Shown in pieces: positions 1 through 62,165 of a stretch of DNA of 64,000 nt. The notes under the pieces were generated by a model, which made no database searches, was not told the origin of the DNA, and saw only the letters and a program-made list of their open reading frames with translations. The translations under genes and the position numbers were made by a program. The first letter of the stretch is position 1. Each line of letters starts with the position of its first letter. Source of the stretch: Candidatus Woesearchaeota archaeon (GTDB taxonomy: Archaea; Nanobdellota; Nanobdellia; Pacearchaeales; GW2011-AR1); contig CAZBWB010000002.1 of the NCBI GenBank assembly GCA_964495875.1, positions 24,363 to 88,362 on the forward strand. The letters are read 5' to 3'.

Positions 1-234
1 TTTAATCATGTTTTTAATATGAGAGGCAAGAGTGTTTATTCTCTTTTTTTCCTTCTTTGTAGCCTTTTTATTTCCGATAATTATTTGATTGTCCTTTTTT
101 TCCAGTATGAGATTTGTAGTGTCAAACTCTTTTTTATTCTCTCCTGCAGGACCTTTTGCTTCAATTATATCTCCATTTACATTAACTTCAATTCCTTCAG
201 GAATTTCAATTGTTTGGAACAATTCTTTTTTCAT
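1..234 (-). CDS. rpl6: 50S ribosomal protein L6 (uL6), 5' part; gene continues past the left edge
   Basis: Not in ORF track (edge-truncated). Reverse-strand translation from ATG at 234 reads MKKELFQTIEIPEGIEVNVNGDIIEAKGPAGENKKEFD...LASHIKNMIK, open to position 1; canonical slot after S8. Confidence 0.85.
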   Translation of the reverse strand, partial: MKKELFQTIEIPEGIEVNVNGDIIEAKGPAGENKKEFDTTNLILEKKDNQIIIGNKKATKKEKKRINTLASHIKNMIK

Positions 235-235
235 T

Positions 236-472
236 TTAAATTAGGCAAAAATCATATTTACTTGTTCTTTTTAACATTCCTAAATCATATTTATTCAATG
301 CTCTTTTAGAAAGTATATTTCTTCTTAGATATTGATATCTTTGATTATTATTTCTCCTTTCTAGAATATTGGCTCCTCCAAGTGATTCTAACAAATCTAT
401 TCTCTCAAATAATACTTTAATTTTGTGAACACTTTCTCTTTCACTTATGATTGTAGGTATTATGTTTTTCAT
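236..472 (-). CDS. hypothetical 78-aa protein inserted between S8 and L6
   Basis: ORF fills the S8-L6 gap with 1-nt spacers on both sides; no family recognised. Confidence 0.45.
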   Translation of the reverse strand: MKNIIPTIISERESVHKIKVLFERIDLLESLGGANILERRNNNQRYQYLRRNILSKRALNKYDLGMLKRTSKYDFCLI

Positions 473-473
473 T

Positions 474-854
474 TTAGTAAAAATATGCTATCAAGCATCC
501 TCCTATTCCTTCTTCTAATGCTTCTTCATGGGTTATTAGCCCTTTATTTGTAGAGATAATCATAACACCCATATTTCTCGCAGGCAAATATCTTCTTCTG
601 TATTTTTCAATCTGGCTTTTATCAACACTGAATCTCGGTTTTATTGCCTTGCATTCTGATAATTCTCCGATTGTGACTTCAACGCTTCTTTTTTTCACAT
701 CAATCTTGTATTTTTTAATCGCTCCTTCTTGTTTCATTATCTTCAGAATTTCAATTAACAAATTAGATATTCTCTTAATTTTCGCAGTTTCTTTTCCAGC
801 TTTCTTGCTGTTTCTTATCATATTCAAAGCATCAGCAATAATATCTTGTGACAT
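474..854 (-). CDS. rps8: 30S ribosomal protein S8 (uS8)
   Basis: MSQDIIADALNMIRNSKKAGK... typical S8 N-terminus; ORF opens at 872 but ATG at 854 lies 1 nt after S14 stop. Confidence 0.9.
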   Translation of the reverse strand: MSQDIIADALNMIRNSKKAGKETAKIKRISNLLIEILKIMKQEGAIKKYKIDVKKRSVEVTIGELSECKAIKPRFSVDKSQIEKYRRRYLPARNMGVMIISTNKGLITHEEALEEGIGGCLIAYFY

Positions 855-855
855 T

Positions 856-1086
856 TTAACTATATTTTTCAAAACCGATTTCCTTTGCTATTTCTCTAAA
901 GCAATGTCGGCATAAATTTAATCCATATGATTTGATATGAGCGCCAAATCTTCCGCATCTTTCACATTTCTTAGCAGCAATTCCGATTTTTCTTTCTTTT
1001 GGCTTGTTGTGTTTCAAAAATTTTTCTCTGATTGCAGGTTTGTTTTTTAACTGCTTCAGTATTTTTCTCCAATCACTCGATGTCAT
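856..1086 (-). CDS. rps14: 30S ribosomal protein S14 (uS14), zinc-ribbon type
   Basis: C-terminal KKCERCGR...[10 protein letters not shown] motif; position between L5 and S8. Confidence 0.85.
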
Positions 1087-1088
1087 TT

Positions 1089-1583
1089 TTAAACAAACTC
1101 TGTCTGGAAGTTGTCTTCCATAAATTTAATTATTTCTTCAGGACTTATAGCCTGTCTTTTTGGGATTTTGCCCTGCTTGATTTTTTTAAACATGATTCTT
1201 CTTCCTGTTCTTTTGAAAACAACAGTTACATCCAATCCTATAATTCCTATATCTCTCTGATATTCCACTCCAGGAATTTCAATATATTCTTTAATACCAA
1301 AAGAAAAATTATTTTCACTTATTTGCTTTTTGGACAATCTGTTATCAATAGCACTCAGCATTTTTTTCAAAAATTCATTTATATTTTGCCTTATTGTAAC
1401 AACTGCACCAACTTCAAGTTTTGGTCTGACGCCCAGCGAAGGAATTCTCTTTCGTGTTTTTCTTTTTGAAGGTTTTCTTCCAGTAAGCAATTTCAAAAGT
1501 TTGACTCCTTTTTCCAAATCATCGCCAGTCCCTCCTATGCTAAACACAATTTTTTCAATTTTTATTTCTCTCATTAGATTCAT
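1089..1583 (-). CDS. rpl5: 50S ribosomal protein L5 (uL5)
   Basis: [18 protein letters not shown]...[10 protein letters not shown] pattern and operon position. Confidence 0.9.
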
Positions 1584-2224
1584 TTTATAGCCATTAATTG
1601 TTTAATTAAAATTTCAATATCATTCTTTCCTATTTTTACCTGGGCTGTCTTGTTTTTAATCTTGCTTAAAACTCCTTTTTCTCCTGCGTGCTTGCCCTCA
1701 AAAACCACAACTTCTGCTTTTTCCTTTAAAGGAATAATGCTTTCTATTTTATTTTTTAAAATATTAATCAGGACAGAGTCATTAACATCACATTTCATAT
1801 CTGATAAAAAATTCCTTCCATCGCTTAAATTCAACTGAATCTTTTTTCCTTTTAATATTTTCTTATTGATTATCTTAGAAATTTTCTTTTCTGCTTCTTT
1901 TTCATTAATCTCATCTATCATGAACTTTCCTTTATCCGACAAGTCCATCCTGTAGAATTTTTTTGCTGGAACAACATTTATTACATCAAACAATAAAACA
2001 TTATTTTTTTCATCTTTTACTGGCTTGTTATTCAGTAAAATATGCTTTGCATGGATTATTTTTTTAACTTCTTTTCTTTTTGATGCAATTTTTAAAATAT
2101 CTCTCAATACAATCAGAACAGGAATTCCTTTTCCAATATTGAAGTTAGGCCTGACTACATAAGCCGTGCCTTTTCTTCTTATCGGCCAGTTTTTAGGAAT
2201 TTTTTGTCTTTTCAAATGGCTCAT
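1580..2224 (-). CDS. rps4e: 30S ribosomal protein S4e (eS4)
   Basis: MSHLKRQKIPKNWPIRRKG N-terminus diagnostic of S4e; 4-nt overlaps with neighbours. Confidence 0.9.
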   Translation of the reverse strand: MSHLKRQKIPKNWPIRRKGTAYVVRPNFNIGKGIPVLIVLRDILKIASKRKEVKKIIHAKHILLNNKPVKDEKNNVLLFDVINVVPAKKFYRMDLSDKGKFMIDEINEKEAEKKISKIINKKILKGKKIQLNLSDGRNFLSDMKCDVNDSVLINILKNKIESIIPLKEKAEVVVFEGKHAGEKGVLSKIKNKTAQVKIGKNDIEILIKQLMAIK

Positions 2225-2649
2225 TTTTCTTTCTCCTTTTCTTTATTTTCCTTTTTTTCTGTTTTCTTTTCTTCTTTTACAAATCTTTTCATTCTCTTTT
2301 TATCTTCTGCATCCAATTCAACAATCTGCAGATTTGAAGCATTTAGCGGAAAATTAACGCTTGAACCATCTTTTTTCTTAATTTGAATCTTTTCCACTAA
2401 TATTTTTTCTGTTTTTATCTTAACTTCAGTTACCCTGCCCCGCTTGCCTTTAAACTTTCCTCTCATAATTTTTACATTATCTCCTTTTCTTACAGGAATA
2501 TTCCTTCTTTTGTATTTTTTTCTCAGTTCTTTGGACAGATTAACAGATAATAATTTTCTTTTCAGATGCAGCGGAGCATTTGCTATGTATTTCCTCTGCT
2601 TCCGAGGTTGCTTGCTTGATTTCCATTTAGTGCTAAATTTTCGTTTCAT
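2221..2649 (-). CDS. rpl24: 50S ribosomal protein L24 (uL24) with K/E-rich C-terminal tail
   Basis: KOW motif RKGDNVKIMRGKFKGKRGRV; tail EEKKTEKKENKEKEKEK. Confidence 0.9.
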   Translation of the reverse strand: MKRKFSTKWKSSKQPRKQRKYIANAPLHLKRKLLSVNLSKELRKKYKRRNIPVRKGDNVKIMRGKFKGKRGRVTEVKIKTEKILVEKIQIKKKDGSSVNFPLNASNLQIVELDAEDKKRMKRFVKEEKKTEKKENKEKEKEK

Positions 2650-2650
2650 C

Positions 2651-3139
2651 TTAATTAAACCTCCCTTGTGAGGCTAGTCCACGATTTATATAATTTCCAT
2701 CAAATCTATATGCAATATAATTTCTGAATACTCTTGTGATTCCATTTTCTTCTTCAATTTTTTTTAGAATATCCAATGGGTTTGGAGTCTTAAAAACAGT
2801 TATTTCCCCCTCATAAAGTTCTTTTTCAACATATCTTGTGGATTCCCCAAGAGTAAACATCAAAGACAAATCTATTAGTTTCCTATGTTCCAAAGCATCT
2901 CTTAACATTTTTTCTTCGATTTCAATATTTCTTTTTATTCCAACTCTTGGCACTGCGCATTTTTCAATTTCCTTAAACAATTTTCCTATGCTGTTTAAAT
3001 AAGAGATGCACCTTTCAAAATAAGATTTTTGGAGAAAATTTTTCAAATCTGTCAAATCATATCCTCGCTTCGCTAAAAATAAATTCAATCTTTCTGTCTC
3101 AGGTGATTTTTCTAAATTTTTTTCATCCATTTTAAACAA
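2651..3139 (-). CDS. hypothetical 162-aa protein inserted between L14 and L24
   Basis: Intact ORF, 1 nt from L24 start, overlaps L14 stop (alternative ATG at 3130); no family recognised. Confidence 0.5.
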   Translation of the reverse strand: MFKMDEKNLEKSPETERLNLFLAKRGYDLTDLKNFLQKSYFERCISYLNSIGKLFKEIEKCAVPRVGIKRNIEIEEKMLRDALEHRKLIDLSLMFTLGESTRYVEKELYEGEITVFKTPNPLDILKKIEEENGITRVFRNYIAYRFDGNYINRGLASQGRFN

Positions 3140-3533
3140 CTATGCTGGCGATTTTTGCAACTTGCTGCCATCGCTCTGAAACCTCCCTTGCAACTGGTCC
3201 TTTAATTTGAGTTCCTTTTGGATTTCCTTTTTCATCCTTGAGTATTGCAACAGCATTATCTTCAAATGAAATCCTTTCTCCGTTTAATCTTCTGTATGGT
3301 TTTTTCTGTCTTACAATTACAGCATCAAAGACTTTTCCTTTCATGTCCGGAATGCCTTTCTTTATACTGACTTTGACCCAATCAGCTATTTTTGCTCCAA
3401 CCTGCTTTCCTTTTTTTGCTTTTGCTTTTTTTACAGAGACAAGCCTGGCAATTCTTCCTCCGCTGTTATCTGCAACAATTAACTGCGCTCCCAAATTCAC
3501 TCCCAATGTTCCTTTAGCTGATATTGCTTTCAT
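3132..3533 (-). CDS. rpl14: 50S ribosomal protein L14 (uL14)
   Basis: MKAISAKGTLGVNLGAQLIVADNSGGR matches the L14 N-terminal pattern; ORF opens at 3551. Confidence 0.9.
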   Translation of the reverse strand: MKAISAKGTLGVNLGAQLIVADNSGGRIARLVSVKKAKAKKGKQVGAKIADWVKVSIKKGIPDMKGKVFDAVIVRQKKPYRRLNGERISFEDNAVAILKDEKGNPKGTQIKGPVAREVSERWQQVAKIASIVV

Positions 3534-3813
3534 TTTTTCCTCCAAGTTCAATACCAGCAGACATTTCCAATAAACTGTCTAGAAATTTTTTTTCTAGTTT
3601 AATTTCTCGTATTAAATCATCTAAAAAAAGTCCTTTTTCTAATCCCACCACTTTTTCTTTAACATATCTTAGATTACTCAATGAATTTTGGTATCTTTCA
3701 AGCATTTTTTCATAAAGAAAATCTATTTCTTCCAAAGCAGCATTTACATTTTCTTCAACTATCATTTTTTCCAGTCTTTTATAACCTTCCCCTAATTCTT
3801 TAATTGTTATCAT
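3514..3813 (-). CDS. hypothetical helical protein, paralogue A (99 aa)
   Basis: Shares EID-LY-KMLE-YQ core with the next ORF; sits between S17 and L14. Confidence 0.5.
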   Translation of the reverse strand: MITIKELGEGYKRLEKMIVEENVNAALEEIDFLYEKMLERYQNSLSNLRYVKEKVVGLEKGLFLDDLIREIKLEKKFLDSLLEMSAGIELGGKNESNIS

Positions 3814-4123
3814 TTTCTAAATTATTTTTTAAATTTTCAAGATCAAGATTAACAATCATAGATAAATCAGTTAAAAGTTCCAAATGTTTTCTTTCATTTT
3901 CTATCATCTGATTTATATCACTAGTATAAAAATCAGTAGATTCATTACCTATAATTGGTCTTAAAAATTCCATTCTTCTTTTACTTTCTAATAAGATTTG
4001 ATAATTTTCAAGCATTTTTCCGTAGAGTGAATCTATTTCTCTTCGAGCAGTTTCTATATCAAGATTTAATATTGCTGTTCCTATTTTTCTGCAATTTTTT
4101 AATCTCTCTTCATGTGTCATCAT
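3800..4123 (-). CDS. hypothetical helical protein, paralogue B (107 aa)
   Basis: IETARREIDSLYGKMLENYQILLESKRR aligns to VNAALEEIDFLYEKMLERYQNSLSNLRY of 3514..3813; ATGA overlap with S17 stop. Confidence 0.5.
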   Translation of the reverse strand: MMTHEERLKNCRKIGTAILNLDIETARREIDSLYGKMLENYQILLESKRRMEFLRPIIGNESTDFYTSDINQMIENERKHLELLTDLSMIVNLDLENLKNNLENDNN

Positions 4124-4473
4124 TTTCCTTCCTCCTTGACTTTCCCAATGACTGCAAAATGAATCAACTTACTTAATGGTCTGCATTCCTGAATTTTCAC
4201 AAAATCTCCGATATTGATTTTGTCAGCCATACAATCCGGAAGCCGAGCATGAATCTTTGTTTTTGATTTTTTGTATCTTTCATATTTTCTCACATAAACC
4301 ATTCTTTCAAATTCTATGACTATTCTTTTTGGAAATTTCCGAATGACTTTTCCTTCAAATGTCTTTCCTCTGATTTTTAGTTTTCCATGAATATGGCATC
4401 TTTTATCTTTACAGCCAGCTTCGGCTATTGGTTTCTCCTTTTCTGCCTTTTGCTTCTGATTTTTTTCTTTCAT
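4120..4473 (-). CDS. rps17: 30S ribosomal protein S17 (uS17)
   Basis: CHIHGKLKIRGKTFEGKVI...GDFVKIQECRPLSK typical S17. Confidence 0.9.
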   Translation of the reverse strand: MKEKNQKQKAEKEKPIAEAGCKDKRCHIHGKLKIRGKTFEGKVIRKFPKRIVIEFERMVYVRKYERYKKSKTKIHARLPDCMADKINIGDFVKIQECRPLSKLIHFAVIGKVKEEGK

Positions 4474-4496
4474 TTTTTTTCTATTTTTTGTGTGCT

Positions 4497-4793
4497 TTAA
4501 TCTATCGAATCCTTGTCGAATCCCAGCTTAACCAACAGTTCGGTTATCTTTTTCCTGTGGTCTCCTTGAAGTTCAATTGTGTTGTCTTTGTAAGTCCCAC
4601 CGCAGGCGAGCTCATTTTTCAGAGCTTTTGCGATTTTCTTTACATCTATTCCGCTGTCAAATCCTGTTATTACAGTCATTATTTTACCGTATCTCTTACG
4701 TTCTGTCGTTATCTTTATTCTCTGTGAACTTTTTACGATTTGCTCACACACACAGGCCTGTTTTGGAAGGCCGCACTTTGGACATATTTCCAT
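4497..4793 (-). CDS. sui1: translation initiation factor aSUI1 (eIF1 homologue)
   Basis: [17 protein letters not shown] zinc knuckle followed by SUI1 fold sequence ...[20 protein letters not shown]; start trimmed to ATG just after L29 stop. Confidence 0.85.
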
Positions 4794-4794
4794 A

Positions 4795-5010
4795 TTACTT
4801 ATTTTTCTCAACCTCCTTAGAAGATTCCTCTTCCTTGGTTTTATTGAGTGTGAGTATTCTTGCAATGATTTTCTTAATTTCTTTTGTTTTATTTCCTGTT
4901 TTTGAATTTCCTGAACGAGATTTGACTAATTCAGTTTTCAATTCTTTCATTTTCCTTTCTATATCTCCCTTGCTCATCTTTCTGATATCTTTTGCTTTTA
5001 GTGTGCTCAT
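4795..5010 (-). CDS. rpl29: 50S ribosomal protein L29 (uL29)
   Basis: [28 protein letters not shown] typical L29. Confidence 0.85.
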
Positions 5011-5663
5011 TTTTTCTTCTCCTTTTTATTTTCTATGAATTCTGAAGCATGTTTTAAATTTTCAATGATTTGCTTGTCTATTTTTATTTTATCTTTAAGT
5101 ACTGCTTCTGGAGAGAGTATGCTTACTTTAACTCCGACTATTCCTGGTTTTGTCTGAGCTATTGATTTTGCTCTGTCAACAACTTTTGCACTGTCACCGG
5201 TTTTCTTCAAATATCCCTGAGCAAATCTCCAGGATTTTGCTCTTGCCCCGGGTAATTTCCCTCCCAATACTATTTCTGCACCTAATGCTCCAGCATCCAT
5301 GATTTTTTGCAAAGTCCTGTAAGCAATTACTTTGAACTTTAATGGTCCCGACCTCTCTAATCCAAGTGCAATTTCATCAGCAATTATTTGGGCATCAAGG
5401 TTAGGCTGCAGTATTTCATCTATTTCAATTCTTGGATTCTCGAGTTTGAATCTTGTCTTCAGAGTTCTTGTCAATTCCTCGATTTTTTCTCCTTTTCTTC
5501 CAATAACCAAGCCAGGCTTATTTGTCGATACTATTATTTTTTCACCTATGGGTGTATACTCTATTCTGACTTTGCTGATTTTTCCTTTTCCGAGTTCTTT
5601 CTTAATATATTCCCGGATACTAAACTCATCTTTGTTGAACTTGACTATGCTTTTTTCTTCCAT
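5007..5663 (-). CDS. rps3: 30S ribosomal protein S3 (uS3)
   Basis: KH-domain sequence PGLVIGRKGEKIEEL and operon position. Confidence 0.9.
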   Translation of the reverse strand: MEEKSIVKFNKDEFSIREYIKKELGKGKISKVRIEYTPIGEKIIVSTNKPGLVIGRKGEKIEELTRTLKTRFKLENPRIEIDEILQPNLDAQIIADEIALGLERSGPLKFKVIAYRTLQKIMDAGALGAEIVLGGKLPGARAKSWRFAQGYLKKTGDSAKVVDRAKSIAQTKPGIVGVKVSILSPEAVLKDKIKIDKQIIENLKHASEFIENKKEKKK

Positions 5664-6298
5664 TTTTTCTTCTCCTTAACTTTTATTTGAATATGACTTC
5701 TTTTTCTTTTGATTCTTCCGAATCTTCCATAAGGACTTGATGCTTTGTTTGCAATTGCTTCAACAATTACTGGCTCTTCCAGTCCACCGGCATTTGCATT
5801 TGCCTGCAAACTTTTCAGCAATTTAATGAAATTCTCAGCTGTTTTTTTGGAATATCCTCCAGAAGATATTCCTTTTCCTTTTTGATGAGGAATTTCACCT
5901 TTCATAGGAATAGCTTTTTTATGGGCTAAAACCTGTTCTAAATCAGATATGGCTCTTTGAATGTTTTTTCCTTTGATGAATCTGCAAACTGCAGCTGATT
6001 TTTTTGTTGATATTGGCAGGCTTTTTCCATTAACAATAGCTTCTGTTTTTTTCGGTTTCTTTTGCTCTTTCTTTTTTTCTTTTATAGTTTGTTTTGTTTC
6101 CTTTCCTTCTCCTTTTTTTGATTCAGATATTTTTTTATTGGATAATTCATTAGAAGTTTCTTCCTTTATGGGAGCACCCTGACGTTTTATCATTTCTGTT
6201 CCAATTTTTTCTTTTACTTTTTTATGATGTCCTTTTAGATTTTCATTCATTTTATTAAGTGTTAATTTTTCTTTCTCTGCTGTTTTTTTATTTTCCAT
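5645..6298 (-). CDS. rpl22: 50S ribosomal protein L22 (uL22) with ~100-aa K/E-rich N-terminal extension
   Basis: C-terminal half (SLPISTKKSAAVCRFIKGK...VIVEAIANKA) is L22; start set to ATG 1 nt after S19 stop. Confidence 0.85.
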   Translation of the reverse strand: MENKKTAEKEKLTLNKMNENLKGHHKKVKEKIGTEMIKRQGAPIKEETSNELSNKKISESKKGEGKETKQTIKEKKKEQKKPKKTEAIVNGKSLPISTKKSAAVCRFIKGKNIQRAISDLEQVLAHKKAIPMKGEIPHQKGKGISSGGYSKKTAENFIKLLKSLQANANAGGLEEPVIVEAIANKASSPYGRFGRIKRKRSHIQIKVKEKKKWKKKA

Positions 6299-6299
6299 T

Positions 6300-6707
6300 T
6301 TATTTCTTAGCCTGAGATTTTGTTCCTTTAGTTGCACCTATACCCGCACTTCCGTGCTTTACTCTTCCCCTTGTTGGCGCAAACTCTCCGAGCCTGTGCC
6401 CAAGCATTTCTCCTGTAATTTCTGAAGAAATGAAATTTCTTCCATTATGAATCTGAACCTTCATCCCAACCATTTGAGGAACAATAACCAAATGCCTCTG
6501 ATGTGTTCTTATTGATTTTTTATTTGCTATTTTTTCTTTAGCTCTGCTGATAAAATCCTCTATTTCTCTGAATTGTCTGAGTATGGCTCTTCTTTCTTTT
6601 GACCCGACATATTTTGCAAATTCCCTTACATCTATTCCTTTCAATTCTTCCAGAGTTTTTCCTCTGTATGTAAATTCTTTTCTCTTAAGTTCATTTTTTT
6701 CCGCCAT
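6300..6707 (-). CDS. rps19: 30S ribosomal protein S19 (uS19)
   Basis: VQIHNGRNFISSEITGEMLGHRLGEFAPTR typical S19. Confidence 0.9.
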   Translation of the reverse strand: MAEKNELKRKEFTYRGKTLEELKGIDVREFAKYVGSKERRAILRQFREIEDFISRAKEKIANKKSIRTHQRHLVIVPQMVGMKVQIHNGRNFISSEITGEMLGHRLGEFAPTRGRVKHGSAGIGATKGTKSQAKK

Positions 6708-6708
6708 T

Positions 6709-7410
6709 TTATCTTTTTCTCCTGCCAGTTCTTCTTGGTCTTATTAATCCAACCTTTTTTCCAGGAGGTGCATTTCTCTTCGCAATCTTGCTTTTAGGAT
6801 TTTTTCCTCTGCCAGAACCAAAAGGATGATCTATTACATTTACTTTTACTGCTGATGTTCTTGGCCATAATTTATTTTTTGCTTTTTTAATATAATGTTT
6901 TTTTCCTGCTTTTACAAGGGGTTTTTCAAGCCTGCCTTCTCCTGCAACAACTCCAAGAATCGCTCTGCAGTTCATATTAAATTTCTTTTCTTTTTTTGAA
7001 GGCATTAAAACAAAAATATCCTTGCCGACAATTCTGTTTAAAACCGCAGAACTTCCAGAAGTTTTAATGAATACTCCTCCGTCTCCTGGACGTGATTCAA
7101 TATTATAAATTGCTTTTTTTACAGGAATATCTTTTAATTTCATAATATTTCCATCCTGGATTTCCTTTCCCCCGAATTTTATCTTTTGCCCCTCAATCAT
7201 TCCTTTAAATGCAGGAATATAAAATATTCCTTTGTCATACTTAATTTTTGCTATCGGAGCAGTATGTCCTGGCGAACCCATCAATTTGACAACAGTTCCT
7301 TCTCCTTCAAGTTGCCTTGGATATTTTAATTTATATTTGAATGCTTTTCTTCTGACTCTGTAACTGAAACTTCCATGCCCCTGCGCTTGTTGGATTATTC
7401 TTTTTCCCAT
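6709..7410 (-). CDS. rpl2: 50S ribosomal protein L2 (uL2)
   Basis: Length, GNIMKLKDIP...DHPFGSGRGK motif and position. Confidence 0.92.
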   Translation of the reverse strand: MGKRIIQQAQGHGSFSYRVRRKAFKYKLKYPRQLEGEGTVVKLMGSPGHTAPIAKIKYDKGIFYIPAFKGMIEGQKIKFGGKEIQDGNIMKLKDIPVKKAIYNIESRPGDGGVFIKTSGSSAVLNRIVGKDIFVLMPSKKEKKFNMNCRAILGVVAGEGRLEKPLVKAGKKHYIKKAKNKLWPRTSAVKVNVIDHPFGSGRGKNPKSKIAKRNAPPGKKVGLIRPRRTGRRKR

Positions 7411-7411
7411 C

Positions 7412-7648
7412 TTACATCAGTCCTAACTTCGTTGCAATGTCAATTGCAGGAAATTCTTTCTTTAATTTAACATAAGCATATTTTTTATTCCCCCTAATCA
7501 AGGCTCTTATTTTTTCAACTTTAACATCAAAAAGCTCTTCAATTTCTTTTTTAATTTCTGGTTTGGTTTTCTCTTTTTCCACTGCAAATGTCAAAATATT
7601 TTCTCTTTCAATCATCATAACAGCTTTTTCAGTTACTATTGGTTTCAT
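7412..7648 (-). CDS. rpl23: 50S ribosomal protein L23 (uL23)
   Basis: MKPIVTEKAVMMIERENILTFAV... typical L23. Confidence 0.9.
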   Translation of the reverse strand: MKPIVTEKAVMMIERENILTFAVEKEKTKPEIKKEIEELFDVKVEKIRALIRGNKKYAYVKLKKEFPAIDIATKLGLM

Positions 7649-8265
7649 TTTCTAAGCACCTCTGGCACAGGATATTTAGCATATTCTGGAAAAAGATTTT
7701 TCCCCAACCTTAATCTGGAATAACATTCTGCAGTTAATTTGCAATCTTCTAAAGCATTATGGGCTTTTCTATTGTCTTCCATTCCACAGAATTTTAATAT
7801 ATTTGACAGCCCCATATCGCTGTGGTCATCTTTCACAAGAAATTTTTCATATAAATCAAAATATCTGTTTTGGGCAGTATCATGCAAATCAAAACTTCTG
7901 TAGTAAAATGGAATTTCTAATCCGTATTTCTTAGCTCTTATTTCTATAAATGTAACATCAAATTGAGGATTCTGGCACAAAAAGTTTTTCATACTTCTTT
8001 TATCCACCCATTTAAAGAAATGATGTAATAATTGTATTTGGGACTGTTTTTTAGAGTCTCTTAATTCTGCTTCTGTTTTTCCAATAACTTCCAGAACAGG
8101 TTTTGTCCCTGGAGTATTTATAATTTCATCTTTGTCATCAATTCTGCATTCTTCAAGGAATTCTGTCCTGCTTGTCAAATCATATGCTCCAATTTGCCAG
8201 ATTCCGCATTTTACTCTATCTAATCCGCTTGTTTCAATATCTAAGACTATTGGTAGAAAATTCAT
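7645..8265 (-). CDS. DEDDh (DnaQ/RNase T-like) 3'-5' exonuclease inserted between L4 and L23
   Basis: Exo I LDIETSGL, Exo II NPQFDVTFI, Exo III HNALEDC; 4-nt start/stop overlaps with both ribosomal neighbours. Confidence 0.75.
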   Translation of the reverse strand: MNFLPIVLDIETSGLDRVKCGIWQIGAYDLTSRTEFLEECRIDDKDEIINTPGTKPVLEVIGKTEAELRDSKKQSQIQLLHHFFKWVDKRSMKNFLCQNPQFDVTFIEIRAKKYGLEIPFYYRSFDLHDTAQNRYFDLYEKFLVKDDHSDMGLSNILKFCGMEDNRKAHNALEDCKLTAECYSRLRLGKNLFPEYAKYPVPEVLRK

Positions 8266-9047
8266 TTTATCCTTTCTCCTAAATCTTTAATTGCCTGTTC
8301 AGTATAAACTATTAATCTTCCAAGCCCGCCTTTTGCTAAATCCATAACAGAAACCTCTTTTGCATTTTTAACATCAAAAGCATTTGTCTTTAATTTCTCT
8401 CTTTCTCCGATTACAAATAACATTCCGGCATTTTTCTTATATTTTCTTCCCCTTGATTTTCCCTTCCCTGCTCTTATGACTTTTTTCTTTACTGCAATAT
8501 CATACAAATTTCCAAGAATTTTTTTCAGGATTAATAATAAATCCTTAGTTTTCAAAGATAATAATTTTGTCTCAATAACCAACGGCAGTTCTTTAGCTTT
8601 ATCAATGCTCAAATATTTTCTTTTGACATATTTTTCATCAGCACTGGCACTTAAGGCAGAAATTAATGCTATTTTCATTTCTTTTTTGTTAATCTTTCCA
8701 GGTGCCATGCCTGTTATTTTTGGCGGATGTGCCCGCATTCCCCCCTTTGCCTGAGGAACTTCAGCAGCCTCCCAATTAAACTGGCTTCCTCTTCTTGACA
8801 TGACTTTTCTTGGAACTCTTGACATACCCCTTCCATAATGTGTCTGCCAGACATGCCTTCTGTGTCTCATCTTTCCTTTTGCAGAGTGTTGTTTGCCGGC
8901 CACAGGCGACGGAGCATAAGGCTGCCAGATTTTTTTAGATTCCAGAACTTTTGCAACAATGTCCTCCCTGATTGGATGAGAAAAACAATTAGGCAATTCA
9001 ATCTCCTTGCCCGCTTTCCCCTCTACAGAATATATTTTTGTTTTCAT
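8262..9047 (-). CDS. rpl4: 50S ribosomal protein L4 (uL4)
   Basis: SPVAGKQHSAKGKMRHRRHVWQTHYGRGMSRVPR typical archaeal L4. Confidence 0.9.
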   Translation of the reverse strand: MKTKIYSVEGKAGKEIELPNCFSHPIREDIVAKVLESKKIWQPYAPSPVAGKQHSAKGKMRHRRHVWQTHYGRGMSRVPRKVMSRRGSQFNWEAAEVPQAKGGMRAHPPKITGMAPGKINKKEMKIALISALSASADEKYVKRKYLSIDKAKELPLVIETKLLSLKTKDLLLILKKILGNLYDIAVKKKVIRAGKGKSRGRKYKKNAGMLFVIGEREKLKTNAFDVKNAKEVSVMDLAKGGLGRLIVYTEQAIKDLGERIK

Positions 9048-9271
9048 CTTGGTGTTATATTTTTCATATTTTTACTTAAAAGACGTTCAGCTAATTCTTC
9101 TGGATACTGTTCAGCATAATCTTGATAATCAAATATATTATTAATTAAGTCTCTCATACATGCGTCTTCACTAAACCTGTCTAATAAATCCTGTTTTAAT
9201 GATCTTTTTGGGCATCTATCAATTACATATTCTCCATTTTCAAATTTCATATAAATTATGTGTGCGTTCAT
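9044..9271 (-). CDS. hypothetical 75-aa protein inserted between L3 and L4
   Basis: 4-nt overlaps with L3 stop and L4 start; no family recognised. Confidence 0.45.
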   Translation of the reverse strand: MNAHIIYMKFENGEYVIDRCPKRSLKQDLLDRFSEDACMRDLINNIFDYQDYAEQYPEELAERLLSKNMKNITPR

Positions 9272-10215
9272 TTCAACTCCAAAATTTCATAATTTTTCTT
9301 TAATTGTTTTTTAGTTTGTCTTAAAGGAGCAGTAGCGAGCAATGCTCTTTTTGCAGACCCCTGCACACTTCCAAAAACAATAATATAATTTGTTTTCACA
9401 TCTCCGAAATTTGTCATATTCCTGAATTCTTTTTTATCTTCTGCTTTTCCCAAATCAAGTATTTTATTATTATAAACAATCCTTGTGAACATTCCTAACT
9501 GTCCTGCCAACGGAGCTCTGAATGTAACTCTTGCAGGATGCCATGGTCCTAAACTTCCGGGTTTTCTTCTTCCTTTTTCAGATTTATGTGATTTTAATGT
9601 TATTCCAAATCTTTTCACAGGTCCTTGCAAACCCTTTCCTTTTGTTAAACCTCTTATATCAATAAGTTGATTTTTTTCAAAAACATCCAGAACAGAAATT
9701 TCTTTATTCAGATTTTCCTTGACAAAATTAAGTTTTTCTTCTTTGCTACCTCTAAATCCGATTTCAGATAAATCAGGAACTTTTTTTATTCCTGCTTTTT
9801 TGGGCTGAGAATAAACAATAATTCTAACATCATCATATTCCTTAACATCTTCTATTTTTTCTTTCTTTGTCTTTGGCAGTTTCAGTTTTCTTTTTAATTC
9901 TTTATCCAGATTTTCAGCCAAAACTTCTTTAATCACTTTTCCATCTTTGTAAAATCTGACAGAAAAAATTTTCATATTCGGACATTCCAATATTGTTATG
10001 GGAATCGCCATATTTTTCCCTTTTGTCATAGAATGTTCAGTATTGTCTTTAACAATTGCAGAAGTCATTCCTGCTTTATAGCAAATAAATCCTTTAAGAT
10101 TTTTTACAGAATCAATTTTAATCGCATCCCAGTTTACACTAGGCAGAAATTTATTGACCCTTTTCCTCGGCCAAAATTGCAAACTTCCTTTTCTCGGTGA
10201 TTTTTTCGCGGGCAT
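9268..10215 (-). CDS. rpl3: 50S ribosomal protein L3 (uL3)
   Basis: PRKGSLQFWPRKR N-terminus, GKGLQGPVKRFG, first gene of the operon. Confidence 0.92.
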   Translation of the reverse strand: MPAKKSPRKGSLQFWPRKRVNKFLPSVNWDAIKIDSVKNLKGFICYKAGMTSAIVKDNTEHSMTKGKNMAIPITILECPNMKIFSVRFYKDGKVIKEVLAENLDKELKRKLKLPKTKKEKIEDVKEYDDVRIIVYSQPKKAGIKKVPDLSEIGFRGSKEEKLNFVKENLNKEISVLDVFEKNQLIDIRGLTKGKGLQGPVKRFGITLKSHKSEKGRRKPGSLGPWHPARVTFRAPLAGQLGMFTRIVYNNKILDLGKAEDKKEFRNMTNFGDVKTNYIIVFGSVQGSAKRALLATAPLRQTKKQLKKNYEILELK

Positions 10216-10309: not shown

Positions 10310-11005
10310 TTAAGCAACAAATTCCTTTTCTTCTTTCATGACATTGCCATCTATATTCGCATCTCGGATTATTTTGCCTTTTCTCTTTGCAAGCTCACGC
10401 ATTTTTGCAAAGTCTTTCTCGCTTTCTGGAAGAATTAATTCATCAATCAGAAAAACATGGTTAATTTCTGCTGTTTTAAAACCCTGCTTTTCAAAAACAA
10501 AATCCCTTGCAATTTCTGCATCAGTCGTAACAAGCTTGCAAAAATCCGGCTTAGGCGCCTCTTCCTTGTTTTTTGGCTTGGCTGACTTAGGAGCCTTTGG
10601 CTTTATTTTTAATTTGTTTTCTCCGGATTCAAAACTCAAAGCAAAAAAAGCCTTCGGCAATTTTTCAAGCAAACTTAAAATTTCATTTCCAGACATCTCT
10701 GCATCAATCATGTATCTCTTAACTCCCTGAAACTGCTTAATTTCCTTAAATTCCAGTTCTCCTTTCAAATTAGTGGTAGAAATAACTGCACCTGTAACTC
10801 TGATTTTTTCTTCTCCAAGTTTTTCAGAAACCACCCTTACAAATTCATTTGCAAACTCATAACTGGTATTGATTGTATATTTTCTTCCGGATTTTTTTGC
10901 TTTAATCAAACCCCTGTCTCTGAATTCTCCTTTGCTGAATTTCTGAAACTGCAGATGCACAGACTCATCAACATTTCCCTCAAAAACTTTTCTTATAAAA
11001 TTCAT
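10310..11005 (-). CDS. hypothetical 231-aa protein
   Basis: Long intact ORF with normal amino-acid composition; no family recognised. Confidence 0.55.
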   Translation of the reverse strand: MNFIRKVFEGNVDESVHLQFQKFSKGEFRDRGLIKAKKSGRKYTINTSYEFANEFVRVVSEKLGEEKIRVTGAVISTTNLKGELEFKEIKQFQGVKRYMIDAEMSGNEILSLLEKLPKAFFALSFESGENKLKIKPKAPKSAKPKNKEEAPKPDFCKLVTTDAEIARDFVFEKQGFKTAEINHVFLIDELILPESEKDFAKMRELAKRKGKIIRDANIDGNVMKEEKEFVA

Positions 11006-13978: not shown

Positions 13979-14058
13979 GCCTCCGACGCATAATGGTAGT
14001 GCACCTGCCTTGAGAGCAGGGCCCTTTGGGCAACCAGGTTCGATTCCTGGCGGGGGCG
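13979..14058 (+). tRNA. tRNA-Ser (anticodon UGA), class II, no encoded CCA
   Basis: Hand-folded. Acceptor GCCTCCG/CGGGGGC (one G-U). D arm GCAT-AATGGTA-GTGC. Anticodon arm CCTGC-CTTGAGA-GCAGG. 13-nt variable arm GCCCTTTGGGCAA. T arm CCAGG-TTCGATT-CCTGG. Discriminator G. Confidence 0.85.
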
Positions 14059-61790: not shown

Positions 61791-62165
61791 ATGTTTACAC
61801 ACAAAATGGCACCTTCAAATTTTATCACCTTAAGAGAAATGCAATTGGAGGTGGACAGTTGGGTGCAACAATTTGACCCTGGTTATTGGCCTCCGCTTTC
61901 TATTATGGCACAAATAACAGAAGAAGCCGGAGAGATTGCCCGTAATCTCAATAATATGTATGGAGGAAGAGTAAAAAAAGATGCAGATGAGGTAAAGCAT
62001 TTAAGTGAAGAAGTTTGTGATATTATGTTTGCCTTAGTATGTTTAGCAAATTCTCATAATATTGATTTAGATAAATCCTGGAAAGAAACAATCTCTGAAA
62101 GATGCAGAAGGGATGATAATAGATTTGAGAGAAAGAATAATCACTCTCCTAAACGACTGGAATGA
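61791..62165 (+). CDS. MazG-type nucleotide pyrophosphohydrolase
   Basis: ITEEAGEIARNL...LSEEVCDIMFALVCLANSHNIDL (EExxE/D helices). Confidence 0.75.
   Translation: MFTHKMAPSNFITLREMQLEVDSWVQQFDPGYWPPLSIMAQITEEAGEIARNLNNMYGGRVKKDADEVKHLSEEVCDIMFALVCLANSHNIDLDKSWKETISERCRRDDNRFERKNNHSPKRLE

Follow-up and report, generated by a model that had tools for sequence, protein, structure and literature searches.

Variable small genes in the L3-to-L6 ribosomal superoperon of a Pacearchaeota-type archaeon: a probable case of genomic hitch-hiking

What are six additional genes doing between the ribosomal-protein genes of an archaeal superoperon? The question is raised by a stretch of 64,000 nt from Candidatus Woesearchaeota archaeon (GCA_964495875.1, contig CAZBWB010000002.1, positions 24,363-88,362; hereafter the window), whose host is a Pacearchaeota-type DPANN archaeon, and in which six extra open reading frames (ORFs), named here ins1 to ins6, stand within the array from L3 to L6. 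We analysed these inserts together with those of related operons. In such operons small genes were shown to come and go repeatedly, being also duplicated and shifted from one junction to another. The small inserts of the window were shown to be part of a large pool of lineage-specific proteins that is spread across the clade, turns over quickly and is weakly constrained. The reading to which we give a probability of about two-thirds is that the inserts represent genomic hitch-hiking, that is, fast-turnover accessory genes expressed via the L3-to-L6 operon, and not ribosome biology.

Layout of the array and coding status of the inserts

On the minus strand of positions 1-10215 the order L3-L4-L23-L2-S19-L22-S3-L29-SUI1-S17-L14-L24-S4e-L5-S14-S8-L6 is intact, and all 17 genes from L3 to L6 pass the curated Pfam thresholds. 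Six extra same-strand ORFs occupy five of the junctions, as seen from the ORF listing and Pfam. An earlier, first-pass annotation of this DNA had described the intact order with six extra ORFs, and this is borne out by both sources. The ORFs are real and their coordinates stand, with two corrections: the "six positions" of that annotation are five junctions, two ORFs sharing S17/L14, and the start given for the L14/L24 ORF, 3139, is a TTG within L14, its ATG lying at 3130. The features of the array are as follows:

9268..10215, minus strand: L3, first gene of the array (Pfam Ribosomal_L3, 5.7e-56)
9044..9271, minus strand: ins1, 75 aa, L3/L4 junction (ORF listing, junction reading)
8262..9047, minus strand: L4 (Pfam Ribosomal_L4, 1.6e-20)
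7645..8265, minus strand: ins2, 206 aa, L4/L23 junction, predicted DEDDh exonuclease (Pfam RNase_T)
7412..7648, minus strand: L23 (Pfam)
4120..7410, minus strand: block L2-S19-L22-S3-L29-SUI1-S17, no insert (Pfam)
3800..4123, minus strand: ins3, 107 aa, S17/L14 junction (ORF listing)
3514..3813, minus strand: ins4, 99 aa, S17/L14 junction (ORF listing)
3132..3533, minus strand: L14, ATG at 3533 (Pfam, 6.9e-33; start from sequence)
2651..3130, minus strand: ins5, 159 aa from ATG, L14/L24 junction (ORF listing, start from sequence)
474..2649, minus strand: block L24-S4e-L5-S14-S8, no insert (Pfam)
236..472, minus strand: ins6, 78 aa, S8/L6 junction (ORF listing)
1..234, minus strand: L6, 5' part, continuing beyond the window (Pfam Ribosomal_L6, 1.1e-7)

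Base-by-base reading of the junctions revealed 4-nt ATGA overlaps at L3/ins1, ins1/L4, L4/ins2, ins2/L23 and S17/ins3, 1-nt TAAnATG spacers at L14/ins5, ins5/L24, S8/ins6 and ins6/L6, and longer overlaps at ins3/ins4 (14 nt) and ins4/L14 (20 nt). All 11 insert boundaries are thus overlaps of 4-20 nt or 1-nt spacers, in agreement with the earlier description, and the inserts are co-oriented and without intergenic regulatory space. The junctions of the L2-to-S17 block are also 1-nt spacers or short overlaps, except for a 23-nt spacer at SUI1/S17. In archaea the gene for the RNase P subunit Rpp29 usually lies between SUI1 and S17; it is absent from this spacer (4474-4496). GGAGG-like motifs for the next gene lie within the 3' ends of S17, ins4 and ins5, the one in ins4 standing upstream of the L14 ATG. 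A scan for bacterial-type promoters and terminators returned counts equal to the shuffled expectation, such models being uninformative for an archaeon. As there is no space for promoters of their own, the inserts would be transcribed together with the operon and share its transcript; the co-transcription and the coupling-compatible arrangement proposed at first pass hold on the basis of junction spacing.

Chance ORFs in enlarged non-coding spacers, or assembly artefacts, could be suspected for two reasons: five of the six inserts lack a database family, and the genome is AT-rich, with many spurious antisense ORFs. However, with about 0.089 stops per codon on the A-rich strand, frames as long as these (75-206 codons) would stay open by chance with a probability of 9e-4 to 4e-9 each; the frames fit the gaps exactly, and same-strand ORFs fill most comparable gaps in relatives (see below). 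The ins5 and ins6 homologs, as well as the ins3/ins4 paralogs, align as proteins. Independent Logan assemblies of three sediment samples contain the same insert junctions, the listed contig pieces differing by one base at most; the three runs with the locus carry essentially one sequence. Moreover, Rfam finds no RNA family within the operon. The non-gene reading is already effectively refuted, and the sequence evidence indicates that all six ORFs are genuine protein-coding genes.

The small inserts and their turnover in related operons

We fetched 160 related operons with S3 and L14 from GTDB species representatives and JGI metagenomes. The loci (designated L001 and so on) come from metagenome-assembled genomes (MAGs) of Pacearchaeota, Woesearchaeota or Nanoarchaeota, and 156 non-redundant ones were counted. 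Gap lengths in the 156 loci have two modes, one at 0-25 nt and the other at 250-350 nt. At least one gap longer than 150 nt was found in 66 of the 86 near-complete operons (77%), the mean being 2.0. As 12 of these 86 operons have five or more inserts, the window lies in the upper tail of the distribution and is not unique. Occupancy was 31% at L3/L4, 27% at S17/L14, 26% at L14/L24, 23% at L4/L23, 19% at S8/L6 and 3% at S4e/L5, with no insert at L29/SUI1 (0/121) or SUI1/S17 (0/135). The five occupied junctions of the window are exactly the five hottest in the clade, and across relatives variable inserts were present at 14 of 16 junctions. The 243 gaps longer than 150 nt were filled by same-strand ORFs to at least 80% of their length in 223 cases (92%; median ORF 95 aa), and insert boundaries of -4 or +1 made up 82% upstream (n=232) and 81% downstream (n=241), compared with 64% of native junctions.

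With phmmer the approximately 249 gap ORFs could be grouped into 168 components, of which 136 had a single member; reversed-sequence decoys gave 3 matches at E<=1e-3, against 410 real ones. Iterative clustering with hidden Markov models, which was conservative, merged no families beyond the BLAST-level clusters. About 10 of 150 family representatives match Pfam (HAD, HD, MazG, NT5C, B3_4, TrmB-HTH, PEP-CTERM), the set being heterogeneous: HAD/HD/MazG hydrolases, a membrane protein and winged helix-turn-helix proteins. PHROG matches were confined to a few nucleotide-hydrolase inserts (MazG-like pyrophosphatases, a polynucleotide kinase and one uncharacterised family), and PADLOC gave marginal single matches only.

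Some families occupy more than one junction. An 11-member helical family has eight members at L14/L24 and one each at S17/L14, S8/L6 and L23/L2. A 9-member family with two transmembrane helices and a GDLITGxHHY motif occurs at L14/L24, S8/L6, S4e/L5 and L22/S3; its members, from nine genomes, are 68-102 aa long and carry the fuller motif EGxGDLITGxHHYxSS (L017:12023-12298, L025:14948-15181, L140:13071-13379, L158:10323-10607 and 5 others). L020 has intragenomic paralogs at two junctions and L156 at three; in the window, ins3 and ins4 are paralogs that share one junction. Where insert copies are alignable as DNA, the similarity begins at the ATG and stops at the stop codon. A helical superfamily sharing a 'Y..R...G.D.S.Y' motif was suspected by eye; as hhalign of the two largest helical families gave a probability of only 30% (P 5e-4), we make no superfamily claim. 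Neither the ins3/ins4 nor the ins5 profile is related to these two families.

Inserts also extend into the L32e-L19e-L18 part of the operon, where L162 has a 121-aa gene without a Pfam match between L19e and L18. The 161-aa L3/L4 insert of L061 (L061:4789-5274) has homologs (41-50% identity) in seven loci (L085:14074-14442, L068, L090, L012, L080, L111 and L157), about 1.2-1.9 kb downstream of the aligned L6 start. The 101-aa MazG-like insert at L5/S14 of L072 has a weak relative outside the operon of the window (61899-62111, plus strand; 30% identity, E 4e-5).

The five small inserts, ins1, ins3, ins4, ins5 and ins6, gave no match in Pfam, NCBIfam, PHROG, PADLOC or PDB. The sole hint of a ribosomal family among them, ins6 against eS8 at E 0.12, is noise. 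Their isoelectric points (pI) are 5.0 for ins1, 4.9 for both ins3 and ins4, about 8.8 for ins5 (computed on its 162-aa TTG-start form) and 10.1 for ins6, those of the ribosomal proteins here all exceeding 9.4; only ins6 among the inserts thus has the basic charge typical of ribosomal proteins. The GC content at third codon positions (GC3) is 0.13-0.17 in ins4, ins1 (0.17), ins3 (0.13) and ins6 (0.14), which is 2-3 standard deviations (SD) under the genome background (0.245 +/- 0.038 in the long genes of the window), while that of ins5 is background-like.

The five orphans are absent from nearly all of the more than 160 related operons. The synteny comparison that the first-pass annotation had called for found the ins2 gene at L4/L23 in 14 operons and ins5 represented by distant homologs; ins1, ins3, ins4 and ins6 had counterparts at the junctions of the window in none of these operons. 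Even in the closest relative, L001, with 80% mean ribosomal-protein identity to the window, S17/L14 and S8/L6 are empty and the L14/L24 ORF is unrelated to ins5. No homolog or other detectable relative of ins1 was found in 165 loci, and ins3 matched only itself among 5.8e9 proteins. Together, ins3 and ins4 form a tandem pair of paralogs, 30% identical over their full length (E 3e-8) and joined by a 70-nt DNA repeat of period 310, the only repeat found. Apart from this pair, an origin of the inserts by duplication of neighbouring genes was rejected, as no significant DNA or six-frame similarity was found in the rest of the window.

For ins6, a single homolog was found, an ORF of L075 with 42% identity, which lies on the other side of L6, between L6 and L32e. 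The word-indexed search of 5.8e9 proteins returned only ins5 itself; a HMMER scan of 1.84e9 representatives yielded one homolog, P0009 (150 aa, 33% identity, E 6e-9), likewise encoded between L14 and L24, in a genome whose L24 is 69.5% identical to that of the window. A profile of the two picked up a weak third member, the L14/L24 ORF of L138 (E 1e-3 among 19,800 segments). By sequence comparison ins5 belongs to a tiny, fast-evolving family resident at L14/L24, and it is recognisable over its full length and keeps its junction across about 30% ribosomal-protein divergence. Its single-sequence AlphaFold2 model had a pLDDT of 39 and was unusable.

Apparent tblastx homologs of ins3 and ins4 in relatives were discarded, as these matches fall on the low-complexity, K/E-rich N-terminal extensions of L22 and S5 and are not homology. 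Such an extension, of about 100 aa, precedes the Pfam domain (residues 104-221 of the 230-aa ORF form) in L22 of the window (5645-6298, minus strand). The L22 extensions of L028, L087 and L095 were among the spurious matches, and S5 of relatives L101 and L147 bears a similar low-complexity N-terminal extension.

The identity of orthologous small inserts is 40-57% at 88-90% ribosomal-protein identity and about 31% at about 67%, and these genes evolve approximately five times faster than ribosomal proteins. Their ratios of nonsynonymous to synonymous substitution rates (dN/dS) are 0.35-1.15, compared with 0.05-0.25 for ribosomal proteins. Orphan status is therefore due in part to homologs becoming undetectable at about 70% ribosomal-protein identity, the closest relative having only 80%. 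Elsewhere in these genomes, too, small genes without annotation are common, as seen in the gene tables of exonuclease-bearing relatives, so that the operon may merely expose a turnover that is genome-wide.

Three further observations concern the surroundings and the sampled loci. Directly upstream of L3, behind a 94-nt spacer, the window encodes a 231-aa protein (10310-11005, minus strand) with 58-69% identity in 59 of 80 relatives and no match in Pfam, NCBIfam or PDB, by its sequence a conserved clade-specific protein heading the ribosomal operon. The only Rfam/ARAGORN match in the 64 kb is a tRNA-Ser (anticodon TGA; 13979-14058, plus strand). Loci L027 and L064 are archaeal Pacearchaeota-type operons in MAGs labelled 'Patescibacteria group bacterium' and 'Bacillota bacterium', which probably reflects mis-binning or mislabelling.

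The exonuclease between L4 and L23

The largest insert, ins2, matches the Pfam family RNase_T (PF00929) with 37.5 bits against a cut-off of 24, and related DEDD models also match. Its residues D9, E11, D103, H169 and D174, invariant in 14 orthologs, correspond to the DEDDh signature (Exo I DxE, Exo II D, Exo III H-x4-D); in a set of 42 sequences D9, E11, H169 and D174 are invariant and D103 is conserved in at least 90%. An AlphaFold2 model from a deep alignment (pLDDT 96) matched RNase T, DnaQ and the PolC exonuclease domain in Foldseek with a probability of 1.0 and template-modelling (TM) scores of 0.6-0.75. It superposes about equally well on RNase T (TM 0.66), the DnaQ domain, the PolC exonuclease domain, Cap18 and Cas2-DEDDh, while sequence-profile matches to PDB ranked PolC-exo and DnaQ first. 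The protein remains under every NCBIfam equivalog cut-off, including RNase T (TIGR01298; 18.7 bits, cut-off 246.2) and two models for DNA polymerase III epsilon/DnaQ (28.9 against 196 and 28.6 against 222.7 bits), and its sequence marks it as a relative of DnaQ but not an ortholog. The family comprises 717 clusters at 90% identity, annotated in Pacearchaeota and Nanoarchaeota only. The dN/dS of ins2 against its closest relatives (0.14-0.20) is similar to that of ribosomal proteins and indicates strong purifying selection; its pI is 6.2, and its GC3 is background-like. Sequence and model together identify ins2 as a conserved, clade-wide DEDDh 3'-5' exonuclease. It shares the three Exo motifs with the histidine, and the fold, with Pol III epsilon, the PolC proofreading domain, RNase T, Cas2-DEDDh and Cap18. 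Unlike these subfamilies, it is a free-standing archaeal protein of 206 aa, with addresses that have not been described for them.

The gene was shown to have two fixed addresses, depending on lineage. Its place is L4/L23 in the window and in L162, L167 and L168, as well as in 14 of the fetched operons. In L163/L164, L165 and L169 it stands directly upstream of the replication gene GINS51 and overlaps its start (L163:4001-5157, L165:4001-5168, L169:2501-3671), in this context always downstream of an SRP54/mutase-type neighbourhood. The overlap hints at a replisome-associated nuclease in reduced archaea, and the alternative address speaks for a function outside the ribosome. On a star-like ribosomal-protein tree the operons with the exonuclease are scattered, and in a neighbour-joining tree of the exonuclease the GINS-context trio is nested among L4/L23-context sequences with 31% bootstrap, too little support to give the move a direction. 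A search of the 64-kb window for GINS51, as a test for relocation within the same genome, found no such gene. With the GINS51 link and the PolC/DnaQ-first ranking, the sequence evidence leads us to lean slightly towards a role of ins2 in DNA replication or repair; RNA 3'-end trimming, for which a fold like that of RNase T and the position in the ribosomal operon speak, is almost as probable.

Origin and maintenance of the inserts

Genomic hitch-hiking has been described for ribosomal neighbourhoods (PMC2588523), and the pattern described here is an extreme form of it in the ribosomal superoperon. According to the mechanism that we propose, DNA between ribosomal-protein genes would be tolerated only as a translated ORF abutting both neighbours, an insert being translated by termination-reinitiation or coupling at its ATGA or TAAnATG junctions. 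An untranslated gap longer than about 30 nt would break the coupling and expose the RNA to polarity. Selection on the output of downstream ribosomal proteins would then keep only translated ORFs with tight ends, often carrying the Shine-Dalgarno motif of the next gene; such a tolerance filter would yield inserts that are ORF-shaped and tightly joined. A published review (PMC12548453) gives NTGA as the most frequent spacing of coupled genes and places the limit of coupling at about 30 nt in E. coli and H. volcanii; it adds that in archaea untranslated RNA invites polarity, probably via FttA.

Several points weigh against this reading. All related loci were recruited by similarity to the window, so the census describes this clade. 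Co-transcription and coupling are deduced from spacing, and no RNA run carrying the locus was found. The reading accounts neither for the strong junction preferences nor for the precise placement of ORF-sized units between genes. The dN/dS values below 1 and the conserved junction of ins5 indicate some constraint and are silent on the role of the proteins. Finally, the basic ins6 adjoins L6 in two genomes, and for ins6 alone a ribosome-linked role is possible.

How much the encoded peptides matter is the point at which the nearest competitor differs. The small inserts may be effectively neutral and their peptides useless, the frames staying open and their ends abutting only to keep the downstream genes coupled. 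This is unlikely, although with a real chance of being correct: the turnover is extreme and most inserts are orphans, dN/dS reaches 0.84-1.15 in some ortholog pairs, the low GC3 of ins1, ins3, ins4 and ins6 fits weak constraint under AT pressure, and the preponderance of same-strand ORFs with -4/+1 ends, together with the published coupling-distance limit and archaeal polarity (PMC12548453), is what would be expected. However, dN/dS is under 1 in most pairs (0.35-0.66), ins5 resembles its L14/L24 homolog over its full length, some families keep sharply conserved motifs such as GDLITGxHHY, and the source of the inserted DNA is left without an account. On another reading, the small genes come from a pool of ORF-sized elements that would move from one gene junction to another, inside a genome or from genome to genome, by recombining at a short stop-start junction motif (TAAAATGA-like), as integron-like mobile cassettes without a recognisable integrase. 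The occurrence of one family at different junctions across genomes, the intragenomic copies in L020 and L156, the position of ins6 and its homolog on either side of L6, and the copy similarity spanning ATG to stop would all fit. In a test for target-site duplication, flanking junctions were slightly more alike than the null (6.18 against 5.88 of 14 nt, about 3 SD), but the excess is only 0.3 nt and may reflect same-genome composition. Neither terminal inverted repeats nor target-site duplications were found, the sole repeat being that of the ins3/ins4 paralogs. Transposase, integrase and homing-nuclease domains were lacking in the window inserts and the 150 family representatives, and few copies occur beyond the operon in the 10-kb flanks. 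Scans of viral contigs (IMG/VR) with ins5, ins3/ins4 and the GDLITGxHHY family returned no relatives, and a viral origin of the families scanned was rejected. We consider such cassettes improbable, and the first-pass suggestion that the insertions are selfish obtained no positive support.

That annotation had also raised the possibility of new ribosomal proteins or ribosome-associated factors. Candidates would be the exonuclease, if it trimmed rRNA 3' ends in the manner of RNase T, and ins6 as an additional basic protein of the ribosome. The position in the operon implies matched expression, ins5 retains its junction over a long divergence, the exonuclease model fits RNase T, and ins6 is both basic and adjacent to L6 in two genomes. 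Nevertheless, ins1, ins3 and ins4 have a pI of about 5, no insert orphan matches any PDB chain, those of archaeal and eukaryotic ribosomes included, and the orphans are missing from nearly all relatives, the closest included. The insert set of relatives is functionally miscellaneous, and the exonuclease falls far short of the RNase T equivalog score and overlaps a replication gene in other lineages. With four of the five orphans acidic or weakly basic and not conserved, the ribosomal reading is very improbable and the claim is unsupported; ins6 is its only candidate, and a weak one. What comes closest to the evidence is the "tolerated insertions" of the same annotation, as four of the six inserts lack counterparts at their junctions in related operons, and in the closest relative S17/L14 and S8/L6 are empty and L14/L24 holds an unrelated ORF. 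Its "junk" is too strong a word for an exonuclease under purifying selection, for ins5 with its lasting junction and for frames that have stayed open.

Besides hitch-hiking as such, the superoperon junctions might serve Pacearchaeota-type DPANN archaea as a preferred landing pad and a nursery for new genes. We think this quite unlikely, if somewhat less so than the cassettes. Units of ORF size would then enter exactly between a stop and a start codon, and be duplicated and shuffled there, with pronounced preferences for certain junctions, by a cassette-like mechanism without a recognisable recombinase; they would be expressed instantly at ribosomal-protein levels via coupling. The result would be a fast-evolving pool of highly expressed small proteins, candidate mediators at the symbiont-host or symbiont-virus interface.

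Genomic hitch-hiking, the reading that we prefer, has known counterparts. Our literature search found no description of the insert pattern itself. The classical hitch-hikers of ribosomal arrays, as PMC2588523 summarises from Rogozin et al. 2002, include enolase, SecY, Adk, SUI1 and RNase P subunits. As with these, the inserts lie co-oriented within the array, would share its expression and probably have no functional link to the ribosome. Classical hitch-hikers, however, are few, ancient and widely conserved housekeeping genes at fixed positions, whereas here 77% of the operons have variable inserts, from about 168 mostly orphan families whose turnover is faster than species-level divergence. 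In the variability of small genes at the boundaries of a conserved co-linear string, and in their turnover between close relatives, the inserts resemble phage 'morons' and hyperplastic regions. A moron brings a promoter and a terminator of its own. The inserts, in contrast, have no intergenic space, would use the transcription and coupling of the host operon, and belong to a cellular genome, with no viral relatives found. As for coupling itself, pairs with NTGA or +1 spacing and termination-reinitiation are reported in work of Huber et al. (2019, 2023), as outlined in PMC12548453, and by their sequence the -4/+1 boundaries of the inserts match spacings at which experiments in Haloferax and E. 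coli found coupling. Coupled pairs are usually subunits of one complex, whereas here ribosomal proteins would be linked to unrelated orphans.

As an example of frozen gene order the L3-to-L6 array could stand in any textbook, yet this clade peppers it with fast-turnover orphans at junctions compatible with coupling. This amounts to a natural experiment on the tolerance limits of an essential stoichiometric operon, and the conserved flanks provide a positional handle on the birth, movement, divergence and loss of the small 'dark-matter' proteins that make up much of DPANN genomes. Where a nuclease for replication or RNA processing is missing in reduced archaea, the ins2-type exonuclease offers a concrete candidate. 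The pattern is also a warning that, in these lineages, operon membership is a poor guide to ribosomal function.

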